DNA of 64,000 bases from a phage. The DNA lies in the sequence record PZ049338.1; one strand, given 5' to 3'. Both the position numbers and the translations under genes were made by a program. Under the pieces are notes generated by a model. The model was not told where the DNA came from and searched no databases. It was given only the letters and a program-made list of their open reading frames with translations. The number at the start of each line of letters is the position of its first letter. Within the stretch, counting starts at the first letter, position 1. Shown one piece after another: positions 1 through 62,977 of this stretch.

Positions 1-171
1 TTAGTAACGTGTACGAGTTACCGGATATTCGGCTTCACGCAGACGTCTCAGGTTTTCTTCAACCGGATTGGCTTGCTTGCGAGAAGCTAGGATGCGCTCA
101 CGGCGTTCAAGAGCATCTTCACGGTATCCGATAGTTGCTGGTAAGGACACAGCTACACGTTTCTTTTTCAT
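1..171 (-). CDS. small hypothetical protein (56 aa)
   Basis: Not in ORF track (<60 aa). ATG at 171-169 overlaps stop of upstream gene (ATGA), TAA at 3-1; translation MKKKRVAVSLPATIGYRE... Confidence 0.35.
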   Translation of the reverse strand: MKKKRVAVSLPATIGYREDALERRERILASRKQANPVEENLRRLREAEYPVTRTRY

Positions 172-539
172 TTTTTAGTACCTATGGTAGATAAGTCTAC
201 GTTTTTGTAAAATTGTGCAACCTGATAAGCGCGGTCGGCGATGGTTGCGTCAGGGATTGGTCCACGTTCCACACCAGCGTCACAGTAGTAACACTGGAGG
301 ATGCAAACTTGTAACGCATATTCACGTCGTTGAACCCAGATACGGAAGAAGGTGTCTAGCTCTTCGTCCGAGTAGCGCAAGTAAGGGTCTTGCTTGATGC
401 GCTCGATTGATTCAGGGTGCAATGGTAGTGGCTTGTTGCCACCCATCACGAAAGGATAAAGCTGTCGCAGCGAAGATAGGACACGCTTGTAGGTATCATG
501 CTCAATTTGGGTGAAGCGAATCGGCGTGTGAGCTTTCAT
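168..539 (-). CDS. hypothetical protein (123 aa)
   Basis: ORF track; co-oriented with neighbours in a packed minus-strand block. Confidence 0.55.
   Translation of the reverse strand: MKAHTPIRFTQIEHDTYKRVLSSLRQLYPFVMGGNKPLPLHPESIERIKQDPYLRYSDEELDTFFRIWVQRREYALQVCILQCYYCDAGVERGPIPDATIADRAYQVAQFYKNVDLSTIGTKK
279..290 (-). other. strand-specific 12-mer (TACTACTGTGAC on minus), exact copy 1
   Basis: exact 12-mer; shares 18-mer with copy at 2539. Confidence 0.6.
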
Positions 540-906
540 TTAATTTTTCCTTATTACGCTGACCGAACATGTAATACGAAGACCAGTTTGCAGTTTGTGC
601 ATTGCAAATTGGGGTGATAACATTAGTGCAACCATTCATCGAAGATGATAACTCGATTACACTTGCAATGGATTGGTTTACGTTGACACTGCCAGCGCCC
701 ATCTGGATTGCTTCAACATAGCCATCAAACATAATGTCTAAGCATTCTTGACGATCTGTTAAATCGTCAACCATATCACACACAGCAGCAGCATCAGAGT
801 TCATCATGTCAACGATGTTGGCTGGAATATCTACCGGAGGAAGTTCAGCGGTAGCAGGCACAGGGTGACAGGCAGAGATAAACAAGGCCAGCAGTAAACG
901 TTTCAT
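502..906 (-). CDS. hypothetical secreted protein with N-terminal signal-peptide-like segment (134 aa)
   Basis: N-terminus MKRLLLALFISACHPVPATA is hydrophobic; start overlaps upstream stop (ATGA). Confidence 0.5.
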   Translation of the reverse strand: MKRLLLALFISACHPVPATAELPPVDIPANIVDMMNSDAAAVCDMVDDLTDRQECLDIMFDGYVEAIQMGAGSVNVNQSIASVIELSSSMNGCTNVITPICNAQTANWSSYYMFGQRNKEKLNESSHADSLHPN

Positions 907-1214
907 ATAATGATTTCCAGAGATTTAAGGTGAACACGCTTGAGGTGTCCATCTTTGAATTTAACAATAACATACGGGGAGAAGTACGGAGCACTGTCAC
1001 TGTGGTATTCACAGAAGGCCGTATGTTCAGATGAATAGCGATACATCAGGTCACGGTTACGCAGAATGCGACGCTTAGTGAAGTCGAGCGCCAGACCTTT
1101 ATCTTTGAAGCCGAGCTTTTTCATCTCAGCTTGTACATGATTCCACACAGAATAACGCATTATCCACCCATCCCAACGAAAGTAATCAGACCGAAAAACA
1201 CACCGAAGGCGCAC
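903..1214 (-). CDS. hypothetical protein (103 aa)
   Basis: ORF track; tight coupling to downstream gene. Confidence 0.5.
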   Translation of the reverse strand: MRLRCVFRSDYFRWDGWIMRYSVWNHVQAEMKKLGFKDKGLALDFTKRRILRNRDLMYRYSSEHTAFCEYHSDSAPYFSPYVIVKFKDGHLKRVHLKSLEIII

Positions 1215-1247
1215 AATGAAATGACGCCAGCCACATGAGCACGCGCC

Positions 1248-1259
1248 GTCACAGTAGTA
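1248..1259 (-). other. strand-specific 12-mer, exact copy 2 (intergenic)
   Basis: exact 12-mer. Confidence 0.6.
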
Positions 1260-1649
1260 TTACGAGTTGCCATGAGTGATTACCTTAACCAGAGTGTTAA
1301 CGTGAATTGAAGTAACGTCGCCAGTTTCCAGAACTTTGCAGCGAATTTCGTCGAACGTGCTGTCAATTTCAAGAACTAAATAAGTTTCTTGATTATCACA
1401 ATGACGATGGTCACATGGACGGCAAACATCATTGACTGACAGCGCGCCAATGGCAATTGGTTTTACTTCATCGGATGGACGCAGACGGCACGCAGCATAG
1501 GCCGGGAACTTTGCAACAGTCTTGCTGATTTCATTGACAGCCAGAACATTGTCATGCTCGCCATACATACGGATGCAAACGTAGACAGTATCATCACTGC
1601 CTAGACTGAATCGGTCGCCTAAATTCAATTCGAACATTTCACGTTTCAT
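1260..1649 (-). CDS. hypothetical protein (129 aa)
   Basis: ORF track. Confidence 0.55.
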   Translation of the reverse strand: MKREMFELNLGDRFSLGSDDTVYVCIRMYGEHDNVLAVNEISKTVAKFPAYAACRLRPSDEVKPIAIGALSVNDVCRPCDHRHCDNQETYLVLEIDSTFDEIRCKVLETGDVTSIHVNTLVKVITHGNS

Positions 1650-1662
1650 AAATCCACCTGAA

Positions 1663-1827
1663 TTAAGATAATTTCAAATTAGTGCCAGCTACAGTCGCAC
1701 TGATTGCAGGCCATACAGCCAGAATAAAGAAAATACCAGCGATTAAATCACCGCCGAAAAGCCAGAAGAAGGCAGAAAGGAACAGAAAGAACACGCTCAG
1801 GATAATTTTCAATAACGTTTTCATCAT
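1663..1827 (-). CDS. small hydrophobic membrane protein (54 aa)
   Basis: Not in ORF track. ATGATG start at 1827 with GAGAGG Shine-Dalgarno upstream; translation MMKTLLKIILSVFFLFLSAFFWLFGGDLIAGIFFILAVWPAIS... gives two predicted TM segments. Confidence 0.4.
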   Translation of the reverse strand: MMKTLLKIILSVFFLFLSAFFWLFGGDLIAGIFFILAVWPAISATVAGTNLKLS

Positions 1828-1943
1828 GAACCTCTCATTCGTTGTTGGGAATAGTCACAGTAGTTGGCACTGGCGGTAATGATGCCAATACTTGAGCGGC
1901 ATAATCAGCCATGAATTTCATGTACTCAGCAGGTGTAAGCATA

Positions 1944-2153
1944 TTAAAACCCCCACACGTTATTGTAGTAAGCATCGCCAGACGGACGGGATGAATCAAG
2001 TCGTGACAAATCATCACGGCGCTTAATACGGGCTTTCATTGCAGCACGGGCGGCAGCACGCTTTTTATAGCTTGCCTTGTTCTTGCCACGGGGCACAGCT
2101 TGCCCTTTCATTTTCTGCAATGAAATCAAATCGTTATAGCGTTTACTTGCCAT
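1944..2153 (-). CDS. small basic (Arg/Lys-rich) protein (69 aa)
   Basis: ORF track; composition KRAAARAAMKARIKRRDD suggests nucleic-acid binding. Confidence 0.45.
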   Translation of the reverse strand: MASKRYNDLISLQKMKGQAVPRGKNKASYKKRAAARAAMKARIKRRDDLSRLDSSRPSGDAYYNNVWGF

Positions 2154-2508
2154 GACGTTTCCCCTTACTTGGTTTTACGTGACGTTTTTTGTGAGTATTG
2201 TACACGCGAGGCTCGGCCTTGCTTGCATTTTGGCGCGGTTTCTCAGCCTTAGCCGCTTTCATTTCTTCCGTGTATGTGCGCTCGTCGCCTAACTTGATGC
2301 GTACACCATTAACCACGGTTTTAAAACCAGTCTGACTAATCTGATAATGAAGACACTTGCGCTTCTGACCGTTCAACAATTTATGGACGGACTCGGACGC
2401 AGTTTTAGTACCGCCCACGGCTTGCAAAGATTGCTTGCGCTTTTTAATGCGTGGACGGTTGACTTTTACAGCGTAGATTGACGCGTTCATTATGAATTGA
2501 ACAGACAT
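2143..2508 (-). CDS. Lys-rich basic protein, possible DNA/RNA-binding (121 aa)
   Basis: ORF track; GAGG SD upstream of ATG; very basic C-terminus. Confidence 0.5.
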   Translation of the reverse strand: MSVQFIMNASIYAVKVNRPRIKKRKQSLQAVGGTKTASESVHKLLNGQKRKCLHYQISQTGFKTVVNGVRIKLGDERTYTEEMKAAKAEKPRQNASKAEPRVYNTHKKRHVKPSKGKRHGK

Positions 2509-2538
2509 AGTTGTGCCTCAAATCGGTTGGGTGGAGTC

Positions 2539-2550
2539 GTCACAGTAGTA
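2539..2550 (-). other. strand-specific 12-mer, exact copy 3 (intergenic)
   Basis: exact 12-mer. Confidence 0.6.
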
Positions 2551-2561
2551 ACACTGCGGCC

Positions 2562-2687
2562 TTACATGAACAGGGAAGCGAAGACACAAGCGGCAACGAT
2601 ACCACAAGCGAAGGTTAACCAGAATTTTGTAGTGCCTTCGTGAATGTCAACATCGCCATACTCGACGGTATACTTATTCTTGTTCAT
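2562..2687 (-). CDS. small protein with hydrophobic C-terminus (41 aa)
   Basis: Not in ORF track; ATG at 2687 preceded by AAGGTG SD; MNKNKYTVEYGDVDIHEGTTKFWLTFACGIVAACVFASLFM. Confidence 0.3.
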   Translation of the reverse strand: MNKNKYTVEYGDVDIHEGTTKFWLTFACGIVAACVFASLFM

Positions 2688-2757
2688 ATTAGTCACCTTG
2701 TCAGTTAAGTAATACTAATAAAGCCCATCATATAGATAGGCTTGATAGTGTCACTTG

Positions 2758-3378
2758 TTACGCAGCTTTCTTGCTTGCTGCCTTGCTGCGCAGTTCACGC
2801 ATATTTTCAGCGGTGAACAGATCGTTGATGGCTTTAATGGCCATGTTACGCAGTACATCGGTATTCGCGCCGTTCTCAATCGCTTGCTGCAATTGGGATT
2901 GGATAGACGAGCGGATTGATTTGGCGGACTTATCCAAATCATATGACTTAGCATCGCGCTCCTTAGTCTTATTGGTATGCAGCAGGGAAGAGTATTCCGC
3001 AGCTACGAAGGCTTTTACCGCGTTACGATATGCAACCTTCTGCTCCTTAGATACCGGAGCTTCACCTTTCGCCGCGTCATGTTTCCAGTTGGTTACGGTG
3101 TAGGCTTTTTCTTTCTTGTCTGCGGACGTGTTATCTTTATCCATTTTGATAACCAGTTTTGCCATAGTCGGCAGCAGGTCATTGATAACAGCACGTTGCA
3201 ATTGTGGGAAACGTTTAATTGCATTGATGAAAAATTCAATATTGGACGGATTGCAGGAGTCTTTACCCCAATAATCGGTCGCAACTACCTCAAAGGTTTT
3301 AACCAGACCGCGCGAACCTTCACGGAAGTTTTTAACGGATTCGATAATCAGCATTTGGGTAGCGTTCAATTTAGCCAT
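2758..3378 (-). CDS. hypothetical protein (206 aa), first sizeable gene of the leftward unit
   Basis: ORF track; GAGGAA SD 9 nt upstream of ATG at 3378. Confidence 0.6.
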   Translation of the reverse strand: MAKLNATQMLIIESVKNFREGSRGLVKTFEVVATDYWGKDSCNPSNIEFFINAIKRFPQLQRAVINDLLPTMAKLVIKMDKDNTSADKKEKAYTVTNWKHDAAKGEAPVSKEQKVAYRNAVKAFVAAEYSSLLHTNKTKERDAKSYDLDKSAKSIRSSIQSQLQQAIENGANTDVLRNMAIKAINDLFTAENMRELRSKAASKKAA

Positions 3379-3434
3379 GATAATATTCCTCGTTGTTTAC
3401 ATTGATTGAGTTATGAATCAGCACGATTCGATAA

Positions 3435-3466
3435 ATAGCCCACGCATCATGGGAATTATGGGCTAT
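3435..3466. other. inverted repeat (ATAGCCCA ... TGGGCTAT) just upstream of the first leftward gene
   Basis: 8-bp arms read directly; possible operator or RNA structure. Confidence 0.35.
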
Positions 3467-4238
3467 TCGAATCATCACTATTTGCGACTTGTCCAGTCGC
3501 CGGACTGATGCGCGCCTGATGGATACGGGGGCGAGTACCTTTTCACTTTACACATCAAATTTTACTCCCCGACTATCTGCGAATTAAAGATTAATCAGTG
3601 TTAATTGACGCAGTGACACGCCTCAAACGAGATAATCAACCATTGAAATCAATCAAGGCCGATTAAATAAAACTTGTCGTTGTTGTGCTACGTTGTCGCA
3701 TTCTTTATATAATCTTTCGGTAGTCTTAGTTGTGAGTAGGTAGAATTTTCATTCATTCGCTATCACTATTCGATTACGCGGCCTCTCGGCCTATCATCTT
3801 TTCAATCACTAGCCCACTTATTCTATTCAGTGAGATACCAAATTAACACTATACCGACGCTTAGATGTATAGATGATGTTCTAGTCTGGTTAAATCAGTC
3901 TTTACTTTGATGGCAACATGACACGTTGTGTAAACCGCTGGCACTTAAGCCGTCACGCATTGCGTTTTACGCCACCTTTTCAACCTTCCTTGCAAGCCTT
4001 GCGACTTTTAAGGTCGGGGCAAACTACTCCGGCTAAGTATTCAGTGTCTTATGTTTCCCACTGTTACCCGCTTTCGTCAATAAGCCGTAATTTAAAACCA
4101 TCCGTTAATCAGGTATGATTGCCACATTGTCGGGGGGAAGTATCCGACTGATGTTTACCGTTGGTTATACGGCGGGCTATTGCCCCTTAAGGTGCGGCCT
4201 ATGTGGTAGGCTGCCTTTGATGGGTAATGATTAACCTA

Positions 4239-4248
4239 TCCCATCTAT
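4239..4248 (+). promoter_or_regulatory. TCCCATCTAT motif copy 1
   Basis: exact 10-mer, repeated 4 times in the control region. Confidence 0.35.
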
Positions 4249-4269
4249 TTACTACTGGATAACTAATCT

Positions 4270-4292
4270 AGTTAATCCACATATATTAAGAG
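4270..4292 (-). promoter_or_regulatory. 23-bp repeated element, inverted copy (CTCTTAATATATGTGGATTAACT on minus strand)
   Basis: 1 mismatch to copies at 25156-25178 and 47913-47935. Confidence 0.4.
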
Positions 4293-4315
4293 ATAATCCC
4301 TTAATACGTCCTACT

Positions 4316-4351
4316 TAAAACATTCTAGGTTATCCCTTCCTACCTTGTCAA
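4316..4351 (-). promoter_or_regulatory. sigma70-type promoter P1 (leftward): -35 TTGACA 4351-4346, -10 TAGAAT 4327-4322, 18-nt spacer
   Basis: hexamers read directly; AT-rich upstream. Confidence 0.5.
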
Positions 4352-4426
4352 CCTTACTTAGAAAATTCTTTCTTCTGGTTGACTCACCTGATAGTTACTT
4401 GGCTATTCAGCTTCACTATCTGGTAT

Positions 4427-4463
4427 GTGGTAGATTATAGGTTTAACCTTTCTACCTTGTCAA
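4427..4463 (-). promoter_or_regulatory. sigma70-type promoter P2 (leftward): -35 TTGACA 4463-4458, -10 TATAAT 4439-4434, 18-nt spacer
   Basis: consensus hexamers; shares CTACCTTGTCAA context with P1; AT-rich UP-like region. Confidence 0.6.
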
Positions 4464-4683
4464 TAAGATATTTTAATTTATCTTGCTGACCTTTACTACC
4501 TATCAGGCTTTCGCGTTGTTGCTGCGTCGTCCTGATATGATTAACTATACGCAATCTTTTCAGATATGCAAACTAATATTTTAATTATTTTCTAACTTTC
4601 TTTCATCTCACTGATTTATAACGGATTATTTCTTGATATTCTTTCTTGATTCAGTGGATAAGATACGGGATACGGCTTATCTA

Positions 4684-4693
4684 TCCCATCTAT
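4684..4693 (+). promoter_or_regulatory. TCCCATCTAT motif copy 2
   Basis: exact 10-mer. Confidence 0.35.
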
Positions 4694-4894
4694 AGCGTCA
4701 CCTTTCCACCTGGACAAATTGGAACATCAATCACCTTATCTATTCCCTACCTTTCCAGCTCATAGATTCATGCCTGATTGATGATCTTTCTTGTGAGCTG
4801 GAAGCTAAGAGATAACACCGCATGAATTAAAACTAGATAAAGGGCACTAGATAGAAACATGCGGAACGTTATCCCATACGTCTTAATTGCTATT

Positions 4895-4932
4895 ACACGG
4901 AAGAAAGGAAAGGAAGAAAGGAAGAAAGGAAG
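4895..4932 (+). repeat. polypurine tract (GGAAGAAAGGAAAGGAAGAAAGGAAGAAAGGAAGA)
   Basis: read directly. Confidence 0.7.
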
Positions 4933-5040
4933 ATACACCATACGGATTAATGCTTATCAAACTATCGTCGGGTAACGGTGCAATGATTAAGATTGATGCG
5001 ACCAATGGTCGTGTTATGACCTGCGGTCATGCGTACCTAT

Positions 5041-5198
5041 TATCAAAGTCAACAATCAAACGATGATTATCAAAGACGATTATCAAACGATAACTATCAA
5101 AGACGATTATCAAACGATAACCATCAAAGGATAACTATCAAAGGATAACTATCAAAGGATAACTATCAAAGGATAACTATCAAAGGATAACTATCAAA
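5041..5198. repeat. tandem array, about 12 units of 13-14 bp with core TATCAAAG/C (5 perfect GGATAACTATCAAA units at 5129-5198)
   Basis: read directly; iteron-like. Confidence 0.85.
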
Positions 5199-5803
5199 GG
5201 CTGGCATTTTAAACACCGACGTTTTAGCCTCACAAAATAACGGGAAGAAATATAGCTCAGGATACTTACTATTAGTAAGAACATAACCATGCTGGTTATT
5301 ATTACCATGCTATCTATGCGATGGCTTATCATTAGGTAGCTAACTATAACATCGTGCATCATATTCCATTGGTATCATTAGATGACTAATCATGTGCGTG
5401 CATAGTATATCACTTGAGATAATAACGCATGAATACTATATCACTTCCCATTATCAGCGGAGGTATATTAATCCCGTGAACTAATAGCCAACTAATTACT
5501 TATGATATAGTTGCCAATGTTATTAATAGATGAGGTATGGTATCATTTGTATATTAATAATAAGCAAGCTATCTATTCACTGGATGCAATTACAGTATTG
5601 TGCTTCATCCAATAGGCTGTATAATCGTTGTTACATTGTTAACGGTATATGTGCCGACCCACTTCCCCCTTTTTAAAAGTTGTGTGCGCAGCTAGCCCCC
5701 TATACCACCGCGTGAGAGTATGAGAATGAGGATACCCTAACCAATTAATGGGTGAGAGTGATTGCCCGTGGGTATGACCTCCCATCAGACAGTACTCATG
5801 ACC

Positions 5804-48956: not shown

Positions 48957-49182
48957 TGAACGCTTGATGTTTTGCCAACTTCTTTTTCATGAGTTTGTTG
49001 TGGACTTGAAGAATATTAGAGACCTCTTTGGTGACAGTCACATGAGGTACAGCAACACCTTCAGCGAATTTTAGTCGCTTAAAGGGAGCGACAAGGTAAA
49101 TGAACTTAGCAACTTCAGTGTTGTTTCGTAAATTTACCTCTTCCCCATTAGTTAACTTATAATACACCCAGAGATTCCACAA
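48907..49182 (-). CDS. hypothetical protein (91 aa)
   Basis: ORF track; overlaps both neighbours. Confidence 0.4.
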   Translation of the reverse strand: MWNLWVYYKLTNGEEVNLRNNTEVAKFIYLVAPFKRLKFAEGVAVPHVTVTKEVSNILQVHNKLMKKKLAKHQAFIDSIVYGEDYDDESPF

Positions 49183-50344
49183 TAATTACATCGTTAGTTG
49201 TAACCATGATTTCCCAGCCAGCCAGTTCGAACATACCACCGGTGAATACACCTACGTTACGAACATCATCGTTACGCATCTGAACGATGTAGATGCCGTT
49301 TTCAACCAAGCGAATTGGTTCCTGACGCGTCACAGTAGCTGTTACCTCTGCTTCGATAGCGAAGTTTTCATCTTCAGCAGCTTCTACTGCATTGTCTGTG
49401 GCAGTCTGGTTCTGAGTTACAATGTCAACCAGTTCCTGAGCGGCAGCGTTACCACGAACGATTGCTGCTTGCAATTCACTGTTGGTGTTCACTTCATTTT
49501 GCAATTCAGCCAGAGCTTCATTAATATCTTCGACAGCATAAACTTCCTGACCATTGAAGATTGCCATTACGTTGGCTGCAAAACGTTCTGCGTTAGAACC
49601 GGTCATACCCGGAGCAGTGTTAACTTCCAGTACCCACGCTTCATCACGACGAGTAATGAGGTCAACTGCACCGTAGTCCAGACCCAGAGCAGCGATTGCT
49701 TTCAGGGCTTCACGCTTAGCTTCTTCATTAGGCTCAGCCTGCTGAGTTGCATAAATCCAACCAGTGTGGTGATTTCGGATAATATCACTGTATTCTGGCA
49801 GGTCAGCGTAACCGTTCACACGCTTCTTCTGCTGAATGTTAGTGATAACACCATTCATCACATGGATGCGGTATTCACGACGCTGAGCATTAACACCCTT
49901 GGTGTAAAGCTGTGCATTAGCCAGAGTACCTTGAACACCATCACCGAAAAGCTCTTCGTTGTTGGTTGCAATCACAATGCCTTCACCAGAGTGTCCAGAA
50001 AGGCGTGTACGGCAATAAACCAGATGACCTGCATCAAGCCATGACTGAGCTTCTTCACGGTCTGTAGTGTACTCTACAGTCTTCACATCATTGCGACGGA
50101 ATACTTCGAAAGAGATACGTTTGTTGGTCGCATTACCAACGTTGTACGGGTTGTTCAGGATGCGGGCATTGCCGATGATTTCGGCAGATAGGGAGGATGA
50201 ACCGTAGTTGACAATTAAGTCACCACTGCGACCACGGAAGCGAGAGCCATCAGTCAGGAGACGAAGTGCTCCCGGCATTAAAGGCATGAGTTCGTTCAGG
50301 GTGTCAGAAGGGCCATTTGAATATACACGTAAGCGAGGTGCCAT
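49157..50344 (-). CDS. ATP-grasp ligase
   Basis: C-terminal ATP-grasp signature WVLEVNTAPGMTGS. Confidence 0.7.
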   Translation of the reverse strand: MAPRLRVYSNGPSDTLNELMPLMPGALRLLTDGSRFRGRSGDLIVNYGSSSLSAEIIGNARILNNPYNVGNATNKRISFEVFRRNDVKTVEYTTDREEAQSWLDAGHLVYCRTRLSGHSGEGIVIATNNEELFGDGVQGTLANAQLYTKGVNAQRREYRIHVMNGVITNIQQKKRVNGYADLPEYSDIIRNHHTGWIYATQQAEPNEEAKREALKAIAALGLDYGAVDLITRRDEAWVLEVNTAPGMTGSNAERFAANVMAIFNGQEVYAVEDINEALAELQNEVNTNSELQAAIVRGNAAAQELVDIVTQNQTATDNAVEAAEDENFAIEAEVTATVTRQEPIRLVENGIYIVQMRNDDVRNVGVFTGGMFELAGWEIMVTTNDVIIVESLGVL

Positions 50345-50389
50345 TGTTGTTACCTTTTCAGTGGGTTGTTGGAAATCAATATTATAAGA

Positions 50390-50409
50390 GGCTCCGAAGA
50401 ACCTCTGAA
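50390..50409 (-). other. conserved intergenic hairpin (RNA AGAGGUUC uucg GAGCCUCU)
   Basis: UNCG tetraloop hairpin; family member. Confidence 0.5.
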
Positions 50410-50417
50410 ATATGGAC

Positions 50418-50657
50418 TTAAGCGGCCATCAATGCGATGAGTTTGCGGTTTTCATTCCTGAGAGCACCAATCTCATCATCAATAAGACTGTAGTGGTACG
50501 ATAACATTTGGAGGGACATTTCACCTACATCTGAGGCAGTCATCTGCTCGACGTAAGTTGCCTTCTCCTCAATCAGCCGTCCAATGTCTTTGTTGTTTTG
50601 TGCTATTAAATCCATCGCCTCTTTACGAGCAGCTCTTGCGACTTCATTATCAGCCAT
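50418..50657 (-). CDS. hypothetical protein (79 aa)
   Basis: ORF track. Confidence 0.45.
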   Translation of the reverse strand: MADNEVARAARKEAMDLIAQNNKDIGRLIEEKATYVEQMTASDVGEMSLQMLSYHYSLIDDEIGALRNENRKLIALMAA

Positions 50658-50881
50658 TAGACTTCAATCCCCTTCAGACGGCAGTAGTCAGCCAGCATCA
50701 TGTGGATTGATACCGGATAAGGGATAGCCACTTTAACACCTTTTTGCTCTTCGTAAAGACCAATCTGGTAGGCACGAACTGCACGGAGCATATCAGAACC
50801 TAAATCAGTCATTGGAACTTTACGAATCACAACCGGGTTCTCCAGACGAAGAACCTTAACTTCTTTCATTGAATCATCCAT
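50657..50881 (-). CDS. hypothetical protein (74 aa)
   Basis: ORF track. Confidence 0.45.
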   Translation of the reverse strand: MDDSMKEVKVLRLENPVVIRKVPMTDLGSDMLRAVRAYQIGLYEEQKGVKVAIPYPVSIHMMLADYCRLKGIEV

Positions 50882-50896
50882 ATTCTCATTTACCTA

Positions 50897-52888
50897 TCAT
50901 TTCTTGTTTGAAACTTTACCCGGAACCTTTCCAGTTTCCAGAACTTTTGAACAGCGTTCACAGCAAGGTGTACTGCCGATAAACTCTGTAACCGCTGCTT
51001 TGTTGAAAGGAATCTTGTAGTTGCAGAAAGAGCAAGTGTTCATCTCTTCCCACTGAACCAGAGTCACTTTCATACCGTTTTGCAGAGACTTGCGATAAGT
51101 CAGGATTGGTCGGACATTACTGCCGCTATTCTTCCGCGCTTCCACAATCTCATTCTGGAGAGCTTTCAGTTCACTCTTCAGATGCTTGTTACTGTGGCAC
51201 TGTAAGCAGAGGCTCTCAACCTCTGATTCAGCATCAACAGGTAACTCTTCTTGACAGTTGATACATTCAAAACGAAGCGAGTCGTCAGAGGACGTCTTTA
51301 CACCATCAACTAACCCCGCATCTACACAACCACCACAATAGGCGTAATCATGATAGATTGTTGAGTCTGCCACGAAATCGAACGGTATTGGAGAGCCACA
51401 GTTTCCGCAGCAATTGTAAGACCCGTTTCCCTCCCATTCCTTTTTTGTGACTACAGTTCCGTCACGAGTTGTGTCCATTGTGTAACCATCATCTTCCTCT
51501 TCTTCGAGTTCAGAGAAGTCACCAATTGAAACACCGGGAGTGGTAAGAGTTAGAGCCGGCGGGGTACGATTGTTCTTGACAGTGTTGAACTCTGTCAGAA
51601 TATCATTGATATCTTCATCTAACGAACCTTCATCATCCAAATCCAATGTTGAAGGAATTAGGGTCTCACCTTGTGGTGAAACATCAGATACGATGATAGT
51701 CAGGATGTAGTTTGATTCGTAACAAGAGATAATCTTGCCTTCGAACATACCACCATCGGTGTACATTTCCAGAGGAACGCCATGACCCTGAACCTCAATG
51801 TAAGCGCCTTCACCTATCCAACCGGTAAGTTGACCTTTCTGAGGATTCTTAGGATACGGTTCGTACTGATACGCTTCGAACACCATACGTTCATGCATCT
51901 TGTATGGAACCTGATGCACTTCCAGAAGTTCGTTAAGCTGCTTGTACTTGTTGCTCACTGAATCAGGGACACCAATGTGAGAAGGCTCAACGTTGCTTCG
52001 ATTAACGCTGCTGCGAGAAGGATTGTTATAAACACGCGACGAGCCGTAGGTGTCATAACGGTCTGAAAAGTAGTCATCATACGACTGGTAGGAATTGCCC
52101 CAGTAGCGCGATTGGTATACCGTTTGAAACACAGGCAGCTCGTGCTTGATTTCCTCCTTAAATACCAGACCATCAGTTGCATCAAATACATACTGAGTTC
52201 CGACTTCGAGTTCAAACTCTTTGTCGAAAGTTGGGTTCCACTTCTTACGGGACATAATCCACTTGAGCATGTCCTTCTCAGAAGCACCATACCAGTCACC
52301 ACCAGTGGTCTTCATCATGTAGAATGGACGCTCGTCGTTACGCAGGAAGTTCAGCGTATTCAGCTTAGCGTCATGCCACACCAGAACGAATGCACCATGC
52401 AATTTCTTGATGGTTTCTTCGATACCGATAGTTGCGATTGAATGGCAAACGTTCTCACTGTCCACTTCAAACTGCTCATGGTCAGGGAGTAGGCTTTGGT
52501 TTACTAATGAGCCGTTGTGAACCAGAGTGATATGTCCACATTGGAATGGGTGGGCGTTCTTGTCAACCACAGCTCCAGCAGTTGCATAGCGGTTGTGACC
52601 AACAATGAATCGAGGGTACGACACTGATGTTGTTTTAACACCGAGGTTGTTAACATTCTCAGAACGATGCTGAGCAATATCTTTCCACAGAGTTGAACGA
52701 AGGAAAATGTCACTTGGTACAGCTTTCTTAGCCGTCTTCAAGAAGGCATCCTGCTGATACGGCTTGTAATAAGCCATCACCCCAGTTGAATGGTCGCCTC
52801 GGAACACATCGGCATACAACATCTGCTCGAAACGCTCGAGGTTAGTTGAAGATAAGGCGGTTCCACCTACAAATACAATTCCACACAT
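50897..52888 (-). CDS. class II glutamine amidotransferase (Ntn, Cys2 nucleophile) with long Cys-rich Zn-ribbon C-terminal extension
   Basis: N-terminus MCGIVF as in PurF/GlmS-type amidotransferases; C-terminal clusters CCGNCGS, CINCQ...CLQCH, CSFCN...CCERC. Confidence 0.7.
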   Translation of the reverse strand: MCGIVFVGGTALSSTNLERFEQMLYADVFRGDHSTGVMAYYKPYQQDAFLKTAKKAVPSDIFLRSTLWKDIAQHRSENVNNLGVKTTSVSYPRFIVGHNRYATAGAVVDKNAHPFQCGHITLVHNGSLVNQSLLPDHEQFEVDSENVCHSIATIGIEETIKKLHGAFVLVWHDAKLNTLNFLRNDERPFYMMKTTGGDWYGASEKDMLKWIMSRKKWNPTFDKEFELEVGTQYVFDATDGLVFKEEIKHELPVFQTVYQSRYWGNSYQSYDDYFSDRYDTYGSSRVYNNPSRSSVNRSNVEPSHIGVPDSVSNKYKQLNELLEVHQVPYKMHERMVFEAYQYEPYPKNPQKGQLTGWIGEGAYIEVQGHGVPLEMYTDGGMFEGKIISCYESNYILTIIVSDVSPQGETLIPSTLDLDDEGSLDEDINDILTEFNTVKNNRTPPALTLTTPGVSIGDFSELEEEEDDGYTMDTTRDGTVVTKKEWEGNGSYNCCGNCGSPIPFDFVADSTIYHDYAYCGGCVDAGLVDGVKTSSDDSLRFECINCQEELPVDAESEVESLCLQCHSNKHLKSELKALQNEIVEARKNSGSNVRPILTYRKSLQNGMKVTLVQWEEMNTCSFCNYKIPFNKAAVTEFIGSTPCCERCSKVLETGKVPGKVSNKK

Positions 52889-52944
52889 GGATAATAATCC
52901 TCTAAGTTCATTTAAATGGGGCCGAAGCCCCTGTTTGTTAATAC

Positions 52945-54612
52945 TTAAGCGATATGGTCGTTATCTGGCTCATAATCATCGTCTTCTTCAATATCGTCAT
53001 CTTCAGATGATTCATACATATCGTAATCACCACCACGACGAGGTACAGGGACTTCATTACGAGCTTCACGGTTCTCTTCATTACGCATGTCTACGAACTG
53101 ACGGTAGAAGTTTCCGAACAGACGAGAACGTTGAGCCTGATTGGTTTCGTAGATGAACCAATCAATGTCAAAAGTGATGCCAAGCATATCGCACTTCCAA
53201 CGCAACTCAGCTAACCAACGGAATGTCAGCATTGGAGGGCGGGTGTTCTCCAACAACCAAGTGCCATTACTGCGGGTTTCCAGATTGATTCGCAGGTGTT
53301 CCCAATAGCGAGGTTCCAGATAGAAATTTGTACGATGACTTGAATCATCCTCGGCAGATTTCACAGTGTGAACGTAAGCACTGAGTTTGCGTAGGGTTGA
53401 CATTGAAATCACTTCATATGCCAGTTTGTAGCCAATGTCCAAATCTTCTTCGAAGTTCTGAACAACCTTCGGCAGACCCTTACGAATTGCGCTGTGAATC
53501 GGCAATGTTGATAGGTACTCAATGAAGTCACTATCAGTACCTTCGAAGTTCACCGCCAGTTCCTTCAGTGATAAGAAGCGGTTAGTCAGGCGAATAATGC
53601 TGCCCTTACGCCACTTGGCCTCACTAATACGGAATTCAACTGAACCAAAACTACTCATCGGTAACAAGTTCAGTGAAGTGTACTTATCCCATTCACGGGT
53701 TACACGATTAGTGAAATCGTGGTTGTCCAGATGCCAGTTGTTAGCCAGAGTAGCTAACTGCTCCTGTGCAAAACCAAGAGCAACACAGAAGTTGTTCTTG
53801 TAACGATGCCAACCAGAGCAGCGGAACAGTACACGCTCATAAACAATATACGCAAGAATCATGCGCTTCAGTTGAGCGACACTCAAATCACGTACATCAA
53901 TGTGAACGTGGGTGGAGCAACGCCAAGATGTATCTGGCGTATGACGGAACAGGAAGGAGTCGATTTCCAGGGATGCTGCATAGAGGTCACGACCACCCCA
54001 AGGGGATGAACATACAAACTCCATACCTGAGTTACGAAGTGAACCATCTAGCTTTGCTTCCCAATACTGGAAAGTTGGCTCATCACTGAGGTGAATCTCT
54101 TCGAGTTCAATCTCAATACCTGCCAGATGTGTTCCAACAATTAAAGGATGACCCTGAATAGTTGGGTAGGTTGCACGTTGCCCGTAAATCTGTGCAATAT
54201 TCATGTTATTCGATACCTCTACGTTTCCGGAGATGAAGCCGTTGCGGCTTGGATTATTAACGCTTCCGTGTCTCTGGTTACCAATCTCTTCCCGTAGATT
54301 GTCTCGTGTGTATGCGTGTTGACCTCTTTGAAGTCCAGTGAAGAGGCTAGGTCTCTGGCTTTCGCGCTCCATTCTCCGCTGTCTTGCTTGTTCATCAGCA
54401 CGGTTATTCAACCACGTCATGAAGGCACTATCTTCTGACTGAGCTACCCCCTGATTCACTATTGGCACAGGTGGCTCTTCGAAAGCTTGAGATACAACAC
54501 TTTCTGTTACATTCGGAGGTTGATAATTAGCCCATCTGTCCATGTGTACAGTGGCTTCAACGTCGAAGAAACCCCCAGTTAATCCTGGGGAGTTGTTACT
54601 GTTATTTGGCAC
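52945..54612 (-). CDS. glutamine-synthetase-fold carboxylate-amine ligase (GCS2/YbdK-like amidoligase), 555 aa
   Basis: GIEIELEE, THVHIDV, FGSVEFRIS match recalled YbdK motifs GIELEM, HVHVG, FGTVEVRVMD. Confidence 0.55.
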   Translation of the reverse strand: MPNNSNNSPGLTGGFFDVEATVHMDRWANYQPPNVTESVVSQAFEEPPVPIVNQGVAQSEDSAFMTWLNNRADEQARQRRMERESQRPSLFTGLQRGQHAYTRDNLREEIGNQRHGSVNNPSRNGFISGNVEVSNNMNIAQIYGQRATYPTIQGHPLIVGTHLAGIEIELEEIHLSDEPTFQYWEAKLDGSLRNSGMEFVCSSPWGGRDLYAASLEIDSFLFRHTPDTSWRCSTHVHIDVRDLSVAQLKRMILAYIVYERVLFRCSGWHRYKNNFCVALGFAQEQLATLANNWHLDNHDFTNRVTREWDKYTSLNLLPMSSFGSVEFRISEAKWRKGSIIRLTNRFLSLKELAVNFEGTDSDFIEYLSTLPIHSAIRKGLPKVVQNFEEDLDIGYKLAYEVISMSTLRKLSAYVHTVKSAEDDSSHRTNFYLEPRYWEHLRINLETRSNGTWLLENTRPPMLTFRWLAELRWKCDMLGITFDIDWFIYETNQAQRSRLFGNFYRQFVDMRNEENREARNEVPVPRRGGDYDMYESSEDDDIEEDDDYEPDNDHIA

Positions 54613-55196
54613 TGTGGTAATTCCTTGGCTAAAAAGCGAACCAAGTGACGTGCTTCAGCAGCCACTTCGATAGCATCGTCAGAGAGGAACTTACCGATGC
54701 TCACATCCTTGTAGCGTAAGTCTGAATTGACACGCAGGAATACCCCTCCAATAACTTCAGGATACTCATTTTTGTTGAAGAACGCTTTGATGTTCTCCCA
54801 ACTAAAGCGGAAGTTGTTACAGATACGGCTGTGGGTTAACCCCTTCTTAGTTGAGCGATTTGCACGATAACTGACCCATACGAAGTTGTTTCCAATCTTC
54901 ACGAATGCAGGCTCAGGTAATTCTAGAACCAGATTCGGGTCAGTATGAGAGATGGATACGTTACGGTAATTACCATCGTCACCCATCGTCGTTCCGTGGA
55001 ATACCAGAGCATCTTCAGCTTCCTGAGAATACGCTGCACGGTCACGCTGTGCTCGCGTCATTTCACTGAAATCCAGAACAGTATTGTCATGGGTCACTGC
55101 GTCAATCTGGAAGGGCTGGACTTTACCAGCCTCATCCTTCAGACCAACGTAAGTCCCAGAGTAATACATTGAGAAATCGTCGGTAAGCATTAGCAA
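54579..55196 (-). CDS. hypothetical protein (205 aa) within amidoligase cluster
   Basis: ORF track; overlaps both neighbours. Confidence 0.5.
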   Translation of the reverse strand: MLMLTDDFSMYYSGTYVGLKDEAGKVQPFQIDAVTHDNTVLDFSEMTRAQRDRAAYSQEAEDALVFHGTTMGDDGNYRNVSISHTDPNLVLELPEPAFVKIGNNFVWVSYRANRSTKKGLTHSRICNNFRFSWENIKAFFNKNEYPEVIGGVFLRVNSDLRYKDVSIGKFLSDDAIEVAAEARHLVRFLAKELPQCQITVTTPQD

Positions 55197-55993
55197 ATCT
55201 CCATCACACGTACATATTCTTTAGCCAGAGCTTTGTCATTGTTGTTAATGACACGCTGTACTTCTTCCGGGTTGATGATTGATGCGATGCCACGGAAATC
55301 ACCACGCATCATAGCGAATGCTTTCTGAGCTTGTTCCCAAGCCCATTTGCGATTCTCTTTGTTCATAATCCAGAAGTTGGACATTACACGATATTCGATA
55401 CCGTATGGCTTGAAGCGGCAAGCACCAGCTTTACCATACAGTTCTTTTCGACGGTCATCACCGTCCAGCAGGAGGGCGGGCAGTCCCAGGAAGTAGTCAC
55501 ACATCACGCCGAGAACTTTCTGACTTTCGGACGTCACAGTAGTAACTGTATCGTAGCCAACGTGGATGTGACCACCTGCTGTACGAAGACCGGGGTCAGC
55601 AGCTTGAGGTTTAGGATTACGCATACCAGTCAGTGCGTTGTAATCAGGCTCACAGCCGAATACGAATGCATCTTTGTGGAAGCGTTCCAGTTCAGCAGCG
55701 GTGTAGATATGAGAACTGACATTCATTGCCAGTTCATGACCTACATAACCAACTGCTTCTTCACAGTATTTGATACCATCAACAATGTTCTTGTCGAAGG
55801 ATTCAAAATCACTATGCGGGTTGGTGTCGAACTCAACCAGCACGTTATCTTCCTGAATACGAACGTCTTCCGTGACTGCTTTCTTGTTGTACTTGTCCGC
55901 TCCAAGCAGACCTGAAACAGAACTGATAGCCCCTGTGCTCGAATCACGAGTGAACAACTCAGGGTCGGTAGCCAACAAAATAACATTAGACAT
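55190..55993 (-). CDS. glutamine-synthetase-fold carboxylate-amine ligase (GCS2/YbdK-like amidoligase), 267 aa
   Basis: GGHIHVGYD and YGIEYRVMS match recalled YbdK HVHVG and VEVRVMD. Confidence 0.6.
   Translation of the reverse strand: MSNVILLATDPELFTRDSSTGAISSVSGLLGADKYNKKAVTEDVRIQEDNVLVEFDTNPHSDFESFDKNIVDGIKYCEEAVGYVGHELAMNVSSHIYTAAELERFHKDAFVFGCEPDYNALTGMRNPKPQAADPGLRTAGGHIHVGYDTVTTVTSESQKVLGVMCDYFLGLPALLLDGDDRRKELYGKAGACRFKPYGIEYRVMSNFWIMNKENRKWAWEQAQKAFAMMRGDFRGIASIINPEEVQRVINNNDKALAKEYVRVMEIC
55533..55544 (-). other. strand-specific 12-mer, exact copy 4 (intragenic)
   Basis: exact 12-mer. Confidence 0.6.
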
Positions 55994-58169: not shown

Positions 58170-58541
58170 TTATTCAGTTACTTGCAGCTTGGAAGATTCC
58201 CAAAGCTGGTCTACCAGATGAACGCGCTTAACTGCGTCGTCAATGAATTGGTTGAGTTGAATACGCTGGAACTTCTCAGCCTGACGAGAAAGCAGGAGCT
58301 CTTGGTACTGAGCTTTCAGGAAGTTGCGAGTTACCACCAGAGTTTTCTGACGATGCCCAGCTTTGCCCAGACGGATTTCAGCATTAATAACACTGAGTTG
58401 GTCGCTGATTGATTTGCGTAGGACTTTCGCCGCAGACACTTCCAGATTAAAACGCTTAAGGTCTTTACGAGCGTTAGTCAGTGCTGAGCCTTCAGATTTC
58501 AGGATTGCTTCGATAGTTGCGATATTACCAATCTTATTCAT
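58170..58541 (-). CDS. hypothetical protein (123 aa)
   Basis: ORF track. Confidence 0.45.
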   Translation of the reverse strand: MNKIGNIATIEAILKSEGSALTNARKDLKRFNLEVSAAKVLRKSISDQLSVINAEIRLGKAGHRQKTLVVTRNFLKAQYQELLLSRQAEKFQRIQLNQFIDDAVKRVHLVDQLWESSKLQVTE

Positions 58542-58986
58542 TGCTTTTACCCTTAGGTTTGTGGAGTTTTAGGAAATAATGGTTACGATATTTAAACGCT
58601 TTCTTACCTTTAGCCCAATAAGGTCTATCAGTACCACTGTAGAAGTGGGTGTAGCGATACTTGGGTTTATAACCGGGCTTCATCACCTTGCTGGCTAAGA
58701 ACATTGCCTGTGCATAAGCTGCCTTCTCTTGACTCGTTTGTGGGTGAGTCTTGAAGACCTTCTTTTGCATAGTCAGCAAACCGTTGAAGTCTTTGTGTTT
58801 AAGGCGTTTTGTCCAATCGAACTGACTCTTTTGCAGAACAACTTTACAAGCAGTATCTGGGTAACGTTCATCAGTGACACGAGTCGCTATAACATCAGCA
58901 ACTAATTCCATGCCCTTGTCACCCTCGCCTCCGGCCTCCGTATATATTGTTAATGTAAGTGCTAATAAGCACGCTGCAAAGCTCAT
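58534..58986 (-). CDS. SleB-like cell-wall hydrolase with signal peptide
   Basis: N-terminal hydrophobic leader; TEAGGEG...VIATRV...YPDT...VVLQKSQF fits recalled SleB/CwlJ hydrolase pattern. Confidence 0.55.
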   Translation of the reverse strand: MSFAACLLALTLTIYTEAGGEGDKGMELVADVIATRVTDERYPDTACKVVLQKSQFDWTKRLKHKDFNGLLTMQKKVFKTHPQTSQEKAAYAQAMFLASKVMKPGYKPKYRYTHFYSGTDRPYWAKGKKAFKYRNHYFLKLHKPKGKSNE

Positions 58987-59759: not shown

Positions 59760-60025
59760 TACGCATCCCCGATATGTTTACATTCAACTTTAACACGGAC
59801 AACCTGAGTATCAGCCAGTGGTGCGCTGACATTACCAGTCTCGATGTTAGTCAGGTGTACGCGGTGGTATCCCGGAAGAGCATTAATACTAACATTTGAG
59901 GAGTTGGCTACATCACCAACTAGGTAAAGAGTGTCGCCATTAACAAAACGAACAACTTCACCGGGTTTTGCTTGACAAAGACCAATAACTTTTGGCATTG
60001 GTACTTTTGATTTTGTCACTTTCAT
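59759..60025 (-). CDS. hypothetical protein (88 aa)
   Basis: ORF track. Confidence 0.45.
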   Translation of the reverse strand: MKVTKSKVPMPKVIGLCQAKPGEVVRFVNGDTLYLVGDVANSSNVSINALPGYHRVHLTNIETGNVSAPLADTQVVRVKVECKHIGDA

Positions 60026-60327
60026 TTATGTAACCTCAGGAATACATGTAACACAGTGGATGCACGGTTAGTAACTGAATTAACCGAACGGTTTAGCTTC
60101 TTTGCAATCCAATCGCGAGGACGAATACCAGCCCACTTGCGAATGAAGTCATCATCCTTGTCAGTGTAAGGTTGACGCTGTTTTGCACGGGAGATTTTGA
60201 ATCGTGAGCAGGCACCAATGATAACCGTCACAGTAGTACCCATCTTTTCAGCCACTTCTTCAACTGAATACTTCTTAATCAAACGTTCTAAACGCTTGAT
60301 GTTCTTATTTGTCCAAGTAAATTGCAT
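60022..60327 (-). CDS. small basic protein, possible HTH regulator (101 aa)
   Basis: AGGAGG SD; motif and hairpin upstream. Confidence 0.5.
   Translation of the reverse strand: MQFTWTNKNIKRLERLIKKYSVEEVAEKMGTTVTVIIGACSRFKISRAKQRQPYTDKDDDFIRKWAGIRPRDWIAKKLNRSVNSVTNRASTVLHVFLRLHK
60227..60238 (-). other. strand-specific 12-mer, exact copy 5 (intragenic)
   Basis: exact 12-mer. Confidence 0.6.
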
Positions 60328-60350
60328 ATGAACCTCCTAAGTATTTAATA

Positions 60351-60370
60351 AAGGGCTCCGTAGAACCCTT
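60351..60370 (-). other. conserved intergenic hairpin (RNA AAGGGUUC uacg GAGCCCUU)
   Basis: 8-bp stem with UACG tetraloop, then RBS. Confidence 0.5.
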
Positions 60371-60375
60371 GATAA

Positions 60376-60453
60376 TTACTCAGCATCAACAGTGAGTGAA
60401 ATGCCGAATGCGATTAGGGCAAGAACTACAGCCGCTATTGCATACCAATCCAT
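60376..60453 (-). CDS. micro-ORF, 25-aa hydrophobic peptide (MDWYAIAAVVLALIAFGISLTVDAE)
   Basis: Not in ORF track; strong AAGGAG SD 5 nt upstream of ATG. Confidence 0.3.
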   Translation of the reverse strand: MDWYAIAAVVLALIAFGISLTVDAE

Positions 60454-60597
60454 AATCACTCCTTATTCCATTTAACATTAAATGAGATAAGGCACGCCGC
60501 TGCCAGTGCAGTTTCAACAACAGCGATCACATGATTACCAACAGTCACATCGTATATCGCAAATCCCAACCAGAATGCTGTAAGGTACAGATATAGT

Positions 60598-61350
60598 TTA
60601 CGACTGGATAATGCTTTCTTGAGCCAGTTCATCTTTCACCTGTTTAAGTGTAAATGTATTGTCGTCACAATCAATACCAATAGGGCCGATAATACGGTAT
60701 TTAGTATTGCGAGTTTCAACAAAGAAAGTACCAACCTTCTCAGAGATATTTACTACACGGGAGGTACTGATTGACAACCCATCACGGAAAGGGTGATTTC
60801 CGTGAGTGTGGGTATCGCTCCAGATTCGACCAGTCATGTACCAGTTGCTATCATTGGACTTGTAAATGATAGCAGATGACAGTTTGGCGTCGAATTGTGG
60901 AATTGGTAATGGGACATAACCTTCACGCAGTATCGGATTTTGTTCATCCGGCATTTGAGTGAAAGGCTTCATCTCAAACATTATTTCAAAGTCACGAGCC
61001 CATTGGCGAATCCGTTTTGGATTTAAACCATTGACACGTTTGAAGTAACCCTGCTGATGTTCAGCACTGATTAATTCATATGACAAATCCAAATCCGTAC
61101 GATGAACAGTGGAACACATCATCATAAGGTATTCATGACGACCACACCACACGTAAAGAAGATGTCCAATCTCCTCTTTAGTGAAATCTGTCGCTTCCGC
61201 CAGACGGTCAGTGATACCAAGCGCCAGTGGTTCAGGGAAACGCTTGTAGAAAAGGATTGGGAACTTCTCAATAAGTTCCGGCATACGACGCTTATAGAAA
61301 TCGTACTGAACAGGGGTAACAGGGCGAAGTTTTACGCGTTGAGTTGTCAT
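60598..61350 (-). CDS. ProQ/FinO-domain-like RNA-binding protein with C-terminal extension
   Basis: LIEKFPILFYKRFPEPLALGI...LLYVWCGRHEYL...DLD resembles recalled ProQ/FinO N-terminal pattern. Confidence 0.5.
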   Translation of the reverse strand: MTTQRVKLRPVTPVQYDFYKRRMPELIEKFPILFYKRFPEPLALGITDRLAEATDFTKEEIGHLLYVWCGRHEYLMMMCSTVHRTDLDLSYELISAEHQQGYFKRVNGLNPKRIRQWARDFEIMFEMKPFTQMPDEQNPILREGYVPLPIPQFDAKLSSAIIYKSNDSNWYMTGRIWSDTHTHGNHPFRDGLSISTSRVVNISEKVGTFFVETRNTKYRIIGPIGIDCDDNTFTLKQVKDELAQESIIQS

Positions 61351-61613
61351 CTATTTGCCTCACATTTAATTACTTCGTTTATTTCTTCAGCCACACTCTT
61401 TGCCTCTTTATACGAGGTTAGTAAAGAGTTCCAGTAATCGTCACGGTATTCGTGAACAGTTAATGAACTAAGGCGCTCTTTGTAATACTTAGCGCGCTTT
61501 ATTGCATCACGTCCAGTTTCTATCATGTGACGTGTGTTTTTAAGTCTTTTATTTCTGACGAGATTCTTCGTCATCCATAAATTTACGCTTCTTGTGTTCA
61601 TAATGAACCTCAA
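61347..61613 (-). CDS. hypothetical protein (88 aa)
   Basis: ORF track. Confidence 0.45.
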   Translation of the reverse strand: MRFIMNTRSVNLWMTKNLVRNKRLKNTRHMIETGRDAIKRAKYYKERLSSLTVHEYRDDYWNSLLTSYKEAKSVAEEINEVIKCEANR

Positions 61614-62477: not shown

Positions 62478-62696
62478 TAGAAGTCCTTAAAATAGGAGGC
62501 GGGGACGAGCCGCCTTTACCCTATGAGTTAAGTTTGCATGTAAGACCTAACAATCGGATGCCTTCAGCGGAATAAGCGTTATGCGTATCCTGCACTAAAC
62601 TCCCGCCCCCTTAGTGGGCTGGGTGTATAAAGGGTAACGCCCTTATGGGCTAGTTACATGAATGTTAGTTTGATAGGAGATCTGACGTCCTATCTC

Positions 62697-62720
62697 AAAG
62701 GGCTCTCAGAAGAACCCTTT
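62697..62720 (-). other. conserved hairpin (AAAGGGCTCTCAGAAGAACCCTTT) in 250-bp intergenic region
   Basis: 10-bp stem; family member. Confidence 0.45.
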
Positions 62721-62728
62721 ACGATAGT

Positions 62729-62977
62729 TTACAGATGCAGCATGTACGTGTGCAGTGCATCGTGAGCCATCTCACGAGTTGGATAAGGCATAGACCAAAG
62801 TCCAGCTTCATCACTGTACACATAAGCACACTCATTACTTACCGGGTCACGCAGTTTGGTAATCAGTGGGTCAACATGCTCAACCACTATTGCACCGTGT
62901 GATGCTGCTTCTTGGAGGAGGTTTGCAGTATTACTTGTAACCCTCACACCTCCGAAGTATTGAAGATGTCTTGCCAT
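62729..62977 (-). CDS. hypothetical protein (82 aa)
   Basis: ORF track. Confidence 0.45.
   Translation of the reverse strand: MARHLQYFGGVRVTSNTANLLQEAASHGAIVVEHVDPLITKLRDPVSNECAYVYSDEAGLWSMPYPTREMAHDALHTYMLHL

Follow-up and report, generated by a model that had tools for sequence, protein, structure and literature searches.

A virulent-phage protein with a FinO/ProQ-type domain joined to a DUF6957-like beta-domain

INTRODUCTION

Bacteria have three major classes of RNA chaperones. FinO/ProQ proteins make up one of them, and to our knowledge all members studied so far are chromosomal or plasmid borne. The crystal structure of RocC with RocR defined two recognition elements, a pocket for the 3' nucleotide and a helix N-cap motif (PMC9674577). 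In the pocket, Gly52, Tyr87, and Arg97 bury the 3'-terminal nucleotide, and the R97M exchange lowers the affinity more than 200-fold; the N-cap motif, with Ser70 as the cap and K71, K73, and R75, reads consecutive phosphates of the hairpin backbone, and R75D results in a more than 100-fold loss (PMC9674577). Phage-encoded homologues exist in a heterogeneous, horizontally spreading branch of the family, according to a review that describes none of them functionally (PMC9977716). Our literature searches found no study of, or experiment on, any FinO protein of a virulent phage.

Here, we describe a 250-aa protein encoded in a 64,000-nucleotide stretch of phage DNA (the window), which belongs to a virulent phage of the Grimontviridae of the Salmonella/E. 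coli type. That phages carry FinO-domain proteins is already known from the review cited above and from some database annotations; the protein is a member of the FinO-domain family with an undescribed domain architecture and does not represent a new type of system. We consider it fairly probable that it acts early in infection, with its FinO domain binding RNA 3' ends that consist of a hairpin plus a tail and its DUF6957-like domain adding a second function.

RESULTS

The 250-aa gene encodes a real FinO/ProQ-type domain (Table 1). The sequence-only reading had noted a resemblance to this domain in the N-terminal 90 residues and had named an HMM search as the check; the ProQ/FINO family profile PF04352 matched residues 24 to 101 with an E value of 3.6e-9 and 37.0 bits, against a curated cutoff of 27, and the resemblance was borne out further by the family profile, the fold, and the pocket residues described below. 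The domain is therefore present, but it spans residues ~10 to 125 and is somewhat longer than noted. Three homologues (P0046, P0059, and P0069) score 42 to 45 bits on the same profile, and PHROG 35316 covers the whole 250-aa protein (E value of 2e-69); NCBIfam gave no match. A single-sequence search against PDB sequences returned noise only, and a family profile of eight members found the N-terminal domain of E. coli ProQ (5nb9) as its best match there (E value of 8e-5), followed by FinO, NMB1681, and RocC. An AF2 model of the full protein, based on ten homologues (mean pLDDT of 87.9; pTM of 0.80), predicts the FinO fold, a helical core with a beta-hairpin, with a strong match to known FinO-domain structures.

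Across homologues from different phages, 30 residues are invariant. This conservation and the fold exclude a chance resemblance or a noncoding or spurious open reading frame, to which we assign a negligible probability: its only support is that all genes of the closest phage record are labeled "hypothetical," and it would have to account for a Pfam score above the cutoff, the fold match, the invariant residues, and a PHROG match over the full length.

The three residues predicted to form the 3'-end pocket, G45, Y74, and R84 (Table 1), are invariant in the phage family, including homologues down to ~41% identity, and the pocket looks functional. Since the domain is identified by profile, fold, and pocket residues, RNA binding is a reasonable inference, and the protein is a credible, predicted phage RNA-binding protein. 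The sequence-only reading had proposed a phage RNA chaperone that could remodel host sRNA networks or stabilize phage transcripts; this proposal is supported in part, in its FinO/ProQ assignment, while chaperone activity and an influence on host sRNAs would be further, hypothetical properties. The N-cap region is more divergent. Its cap position is kept as T57, and G62 occupies the place of an arginine that is Arg in ~80% of the FinO/ProQ family; this position is Gly, Ser, or Asn in most of the phage clade and K in P0175. In addition, the position of RocC K73 is an invariant Glu60 in the phage clade. The N-cap motif thus departs in part from the pattern with a conserved Arg, which leaves the membership of the domain in the family unaffected. 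Because of these exchanges at the Arg and K73 positions, recognition of the hairpin backbone may be weakened or may be unlike that of the characterized members. The first helix carries an invariant basic motif of the phage clade's own, D-F-Y-K-R-R-M-x-E-L, and the core domain carries a net charge comparable to those of ProQ and RocC.

Behind the FinO domain, the sequence-only reading had seen only about 160 residues of unknown sequence. The region is present, but in the AF2 model it resolves into a linker, an all-beta domain, and a C-terminal helix. The conserved linker may impose a fixed geometry on the two domains (pTM of 0.80), which we regard as tentative because the alignment used for the structure prediction contained only 10 sequences. 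A model of the C-terminal region by itself reached a pLDDT of 92.3, and its fold matches in BFVD were uncharacterized phage proteins only, among them T4-like "cd.1" proteins and homologues from LIMElight and from Proteus, Klebsiella, Caulobacter, and Rhizobium phages. A profile of the C-terminal domain against PDB sequences gave nothing meaningful, the best hits being coiled-coil matches of the helix at an E value of ~0.3, and no confident solved structural relative of the beta-domain was found.

Besides the motif listed in Table 1, the beta-domain contains a second one, T213-x-N215-x-x-Y218, and it is matched by PHROGs 11960, 2063, and 13035, all lacking a function label. A profile search of 5.8 billion proteins recovered stand-alone beta-domain proteins of 68 to 87 aa (P0010 to P0024) that carry the motif D-T-H-T-H-G-N-H-P-F-R-D-G ... 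T-R-N-T-x-Y-K, and an exhaustive HMMER search of 1.84 billion representatives yielded 220 members at an E value of ≤1e-3, mostly of 64 to 100 aa and mostly standing alone. The window's own beta-domain did not match PF22275 (DUF6957) at E values up to 10; it is nevertheless related to DUF6957 at the superfamily level, because 61 of the 118 scanned relatives recovered by its family profile match PF22275, with a best E value of 3.5e-7. A literature search for DUF6957 or PF22275 found no papers.

When the beta-domain is fused elsewhere, its partners include FinO domains, in P0046, P0059, and P0069, which have the same architecture as the 250-aa protein. In P0126, the partner is an Rv2179c-like 3'-5' exoribonuclease domain; P0154 carries two copies behind an unassigned N-terminal region, and P0100 is a tandem duplicate. 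In T4-like Klebsiella phages, the beta-domain gene ("cd.1") lies directly upstream of that of dCMP deaminase. The two partners related to RNA 3' ends give a hint of an RNA-linked function of the beta-domain. Its conserved residues are polar or acidic, not basic, which is unlike the surface expected of a classical RNA-binding domain.

Full-length homologues are few and are found in PKM-type phages, in Salmonella phage 7-11 and its relatives, and in a small number of metagenome contigs, at 44 to 92% identity; the one from phage 7-11, at ~50%, is labeled "ProQ/FinO domain-containing protein" in UniRef. Homologues with the FinO domain only are encoded by Erwinia phiEa21-4-like phages (43% identity) and by E. 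coli Gordonclarkvirinae (e.g., ECBP2_0092; 30% identity). Some of the phiEa21-4-like records are labeled "ProQ/FINO family protein," "sRNA-binding protein," or "proQ: RNA chaperone," and phiEa21-4 gp115 scores 66 bits on PF04352. In phage 7-11, the fusion gene, gp122, is located just upstream of Prs and NAMPT, and in the related Grimontviridae phage GAP52, gp014 is a beta-domain alone between an Srd-like gene and Prs plus NAMPT. Since the gene at the syntenic position in GAP52 encodes only the beta-domain, the FinO domain appears to have been joined later onto a preexisting small beta-domain gene in this lineage.

The idea that phages with split halves carry the FinO-only and the beta-domain-only genes as neighbors was rejected, as the two are not adjacent in L002 or ECBP2: in contig L002, the 166-aa protein encoded upstream of the beta-domain gene resembles, on inspection of its sequence, an HNH nuclease and not FinO, and no beta-domain gene was found beside the FinO gene of ECBP2. 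Genes with either half repeatedly adjoin genes for NAD salvage (ribose-phosphate pyrophosphokinase and nicotinamide phosphoribosyltransferase; Table 1); because of the synteny between 7-11 and GAP52, these represent at most two independent occurrences. A link of the 250-aa gene itself to NAD salvage was discarded, as tblastn found neither Prs nor NAMPT in the window.

The same phage encodes a second, divergent FinO-like protein of 123 aa (Table 1). It is similar to the 250-aa protein over residues 12 to 79 of the latter (BLASTP E value of 2e-7), to ECBP2_0092, a PF04352 protein (tblastn E value of 3e-5), and to PHROG 18901, the phage FinO-only family (E value of 2.9e-6). Because it has no Pfam match and has lost the Gly and the Arg of the pocket while keeping the Tyr, it may represent a degenerate or repurposed FinO fold.

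These observations bear on an alternative in which the beta-domain is the functional core, acting on a host protein or a small molecule, and the FinO-like domain, having weak RNA binding or none left, plays an accessory part in scaffolding or targeting. Most of the 220 beta-domain representatives do stand alone, GAP52 gp014 makes the FinO fusion look secondary, the N-cap helix has lost its Arg and contains an invariant acidic residue, and the 123-aa paralogue without the pocket Gly and Arg shows that the fold can drift in these phages. On the other hand, an unused pocket would not be expected to keep G45, Y74, and R84 invariant, and FinO-only homologues persist in Erwinia and E. coli phages. 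Taken together, we judge this alternative to be quite improbable.

The 250-aa gene starts with ATG, 9 nt downstream of GAGG, and overlaps as ATGA with the stop codon of a mechanically listed upstream open reading frame of 88 aa. The hydrophobic 58-aa frame that overlaps its 3' end is also annotated in PKM.Hi.22.6 and had no family match; it likely encodes a cotranscribed small membrane protein. Between 59.5 and 62.5 kb, the window is ~95% identical to Salmonella phage PKM.Hi.22.6 and phage PKM.Lu.22.1 (Grimontviridae), in which all genes of the region are labeled "hypothetical." The 250-aa gene differs from its PKM.Hi.22.6 counterpart at 13 nucleotides, with 5 synonymous and 7 nonsynonymous codons, which are too few differences for a meaningful selection test.

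The gene lies within a run of small minus-strand genes, on the same strand as, and upstream of, genes for a phiEco32-type amidoligase, GATase, and ATP-grasp protein and larger minus-strand frames; this position suggests that it is part of an early gene block of the host-takeover type. The ligase genes are clustered and encode a phiEco32-type COOH-NH2 ligase (PF14395), an amidoligase (PF12224 score slightly under the cutoff), a glutamine amidotransferase, and a RimK-like ATP-grasp protein. Phage gene sets of this amidoligase, ligase, and ATP-grasp type are predicted from comparative genomics to carry out peptide or metabolite modification. The neighborhood also includes genes for an endolysin-like cell wall hydrolase, ~1.6 kb downstream of the 250-aa gene, and, two genes downstream of it, for a 101-aa protein of a regulator-type PHROG (Table 1). 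In Proteus phage Privateer, a similar endolysin is encoded two genes away from a beta-domain-only gene.

A location among small early-type genes would also suit a different role, in which the phage FinO domain is a host-takeover decoy that draws RNA ligands away from host ProQ or from FinO-type proteins of plasmids. The sRNA or antitoxin-RNA networks of the host would then be rewired, rather than phage transcripts acted on, and a possible benefit would be that RNA antitoxins are kept stable after the shutoff of host transcription and abortive infection is avoided. The 3'-end pocket is the same as that of host ProQ, and FinO/ProQ proteins are regulators of mobile elements and toxin-antitoxin loci (PMC9977716). 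However, such competition is a purely inferential proposal that differs from the main explanation only in the RNAs bound, and the divergence of the N-cap region suggests that the phage domain and host ProQ differ in specificity; we regard the decoy role as unlikely.

As for RNAs that the protein might bind, the sequence-only reading had pointed to nearby intergenic regions as hairpin rich, a description that found no statistical support: between 57.5 and 64 kb, a scan for terminators and promoters showed no enrichment, with 6 terminator-like sites against 5.0 ± 2.4 in shuffled sequences. Searches of the window with Rfam and ARAGORN returned no RNA family and no tRNA, and no candidate sRNA emerged from the Rfam and terminator scans.

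A pattern search identified two related, very stable stem-loops, AAGGGYUCU...AGAGCCCUU, both of the AAGGGUUCU-loop-AGAGCCCUU type, on the coding strand directly after gene blocks of the small-gene region (Table 1). The RNA folds of the surrounding segments have dG values of -20.6 kcal/mol (z of -4.4) for 60330-60385 and -26.1 kcal/mol (z of -6.5) for 62680-62735. Both could be terminators or elements of RNA processing or stability. The first could plausibly mark the 3' end of the transcript of the 250-aa gene and is a candidate ligand of the 250-aa protein.

TABLE 1 Positions of the features discussed, in the window unless a contig is named
Feature	Position	Strand	Remarks
250-aa gene	60598..61350	-	FinO/ProQ domain, linker, DUF6957-like beta-domain, and C-terminal helix; from the ORF list
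FinO/ProQ domain, residues ~10-125	60976..61323	-	Pfam match at 61048..61281
Predicted RNA-contact residue stretch	61099..61218	-	HMMER alignments (5nb9, 1dvo, 3mw6, 7rgs) and MAFFT
G45	61216-61218	-	Equivalent to RocC G52 and ProQ G37
T57, N-cap residue	61180-61182	-	Equivalent to RocC Ser70
G62	61165-61167	-	In place of N-cap Arg (RocC R75, ProQ R58)
Y74	61129-61131	-	Equivalent to RocC Y87 and ProQ Y70
R84	61099-61101	-	Equivalent to RocC R97 and ProQ R80
Conserved acidic linker, residues 126-154	60889..60975	-	pI 4.3; N138 and P139 conserved; pLDDT at least 90
All-beta domain, residues 155-227 (~75 aa)	60670..60888	-	Phage small-protein family related to DUF6957
Motif D179-T-H-T-H-G-N-H-P-F-R-D-G191	60778..60816	-	In the beta-domain
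C-terminal amphipathic helix, residues 235-249	60604..60648	-	Only in closest relatives
Upstream 88-aa ORF	61347..61613
58-aa hydrophobic ORF	60456..60632	-	Overlaps 3' end of 250-aa gene by 35 nt
Stem-loop 1, followed by UAUUAAAU	60351..60370	-	~85 nt downstream of 58-aa ORF, just before RBS of next gene
Stem-loop 2	62698..62719	-
101-aa protein	60022..60327	-	PHROG 323 "transcriptional regulator, D5-like," E 1.7e-17
SleB-type cell wall hydrolase	58534..58986	-	PF07486, E 4e-16
Ligase, amidotransferase, and ATP-grasp cluster	49157..55993	-
Divergent FinO-like gene, 123 aa	168..539	-	Same phage
NAD-salvage neighborhood, fusion gene	L003 (phage 7-11) 3066-7261
NAD-salvage neighborhood, beta-domain-only gene	L007 (GAP52) 2486-5234
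NAD-salvage neighborhood, beta-domain-only gene	L002 5001-7782		GAP52-like phages
NAD-salvage neighborhood, FinO-only gene	L004 (phiEa21-4) 1-1956		Right after nadV

DISCUSSION

Judged from its domains and its genomic setting, the most likely function of the 250-aa protein is the binding of RNA ends composed of a hairpin and a 3' tail early in infection. In this model, the FinO/ProQ domain would bind structured RNA 3' ends in which a hairpin is followed by a short single-stranded tail, with the terminal nucleotide buried in the Gly45/Tyr74/Arg84 pocket as in RocC, FinO, ProQ, and NMB1681. Certain transcripts or sRNAs of the phage or the host would thereby be protected or marked in the infected cell. 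The beta-domain, predicted to be held in place by the conserved linker, would supply the second function, which might be to contact a host factor or to carry out another RNA-related activity. Counting against this explanation are the loss of the N-cap Arg, Glu60, the nonbasic conserved residues of the beta-domain, and the absence of a candidate sRNA from the Rfam and terminator scans.

Going one step further, the fusion might be a dedicated phage device that couples the recognition of RNA 3' ends to a second activity or a host contact, a possibility to which we give a rather low probability. If true, it would offer the first handle on the function of a beta-domain family found as a stand-alone early protein in many virulent phages, and the first characterized FinO-class posttranscriptional regulator used by a lytic phage, one that, for example, shields phage transcripts from host 3' decay or disarms RNA-based host defenses. 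With its 3'-end pocket intact, its N-cap altered, and its partner domain new, the 250-aa protein provides a testable entry into the manipulation of RNA stability by lytic phages, and it would give the first functional context to a widespread orphan domain, the DUF6957-like one, which includes T4-like cd.1.

Among described systems, the closest are NMB1681 (the ProQ of N. meningitidis), RocC (L. pneumophila), FinO (F plasmid), and FopA, which are minimal and plasmid-type proteins of the "eclectic" branch. The phage protein is only ~17 to 24% identical to them and differs in having Gly62 for the N-cap Arg and Glu60 for RocC K73, in the first-helix motif D-F-Y-K-R-R-M-x-E-L, which is restricted to the phage clade, and in its DUF6957-like C-terminal module and its origin in a virulent phage. 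Enterobacterial ProQ has a superficially similar three-part layout, in which an N-terminal FinO domain and a linker precede a C-terminal domain that is small and beta rich. However, neither a ProQ C-terminal domain nor a Tudor-like match was found in the 250-aa protein, and its linker is acidic, whereas that of enterobacterial ProQ is basic; the protein is therefore not a ProQ orthologue.

The stand-alone phage FinO proteins of PHROG 18901 (phiEa21-4 gp115 and its relatives, and ECBP2_0092 and those of other Gordonclarkvirinae) are homologous to residues 9 to 130, at 30 to 43% identity, and have the motifs D-F-Y-x-R-R and V-W-x-x-R-x-E-Y in common with the 250-aa protein. They lack the C-terminal beta-domain, which is fused to the FinO domain in the window protein and in its 7-11-like relatives (PHROG 35316). 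On the other side of the fusion, the small phage proteins related to DUF6957 (PF22275), including T4-like "cd.1," GAP52 gp014, and the LIMElight and Proteus phage homologues, share with the window's beta-domain the motif G-x-I-x-x-D...[R]F-x-D-G-x-x-I-x-T-S...T-x-N-[ST]-x-Y and the predicted fold. Unlike these proteins, the subfamily of the window's beta-domain carries a T-H-G-N-H-P insertion in a conserved loop, and whereas most DUF6957-related members stand alone, the window's copy is joined to a FinO domain.
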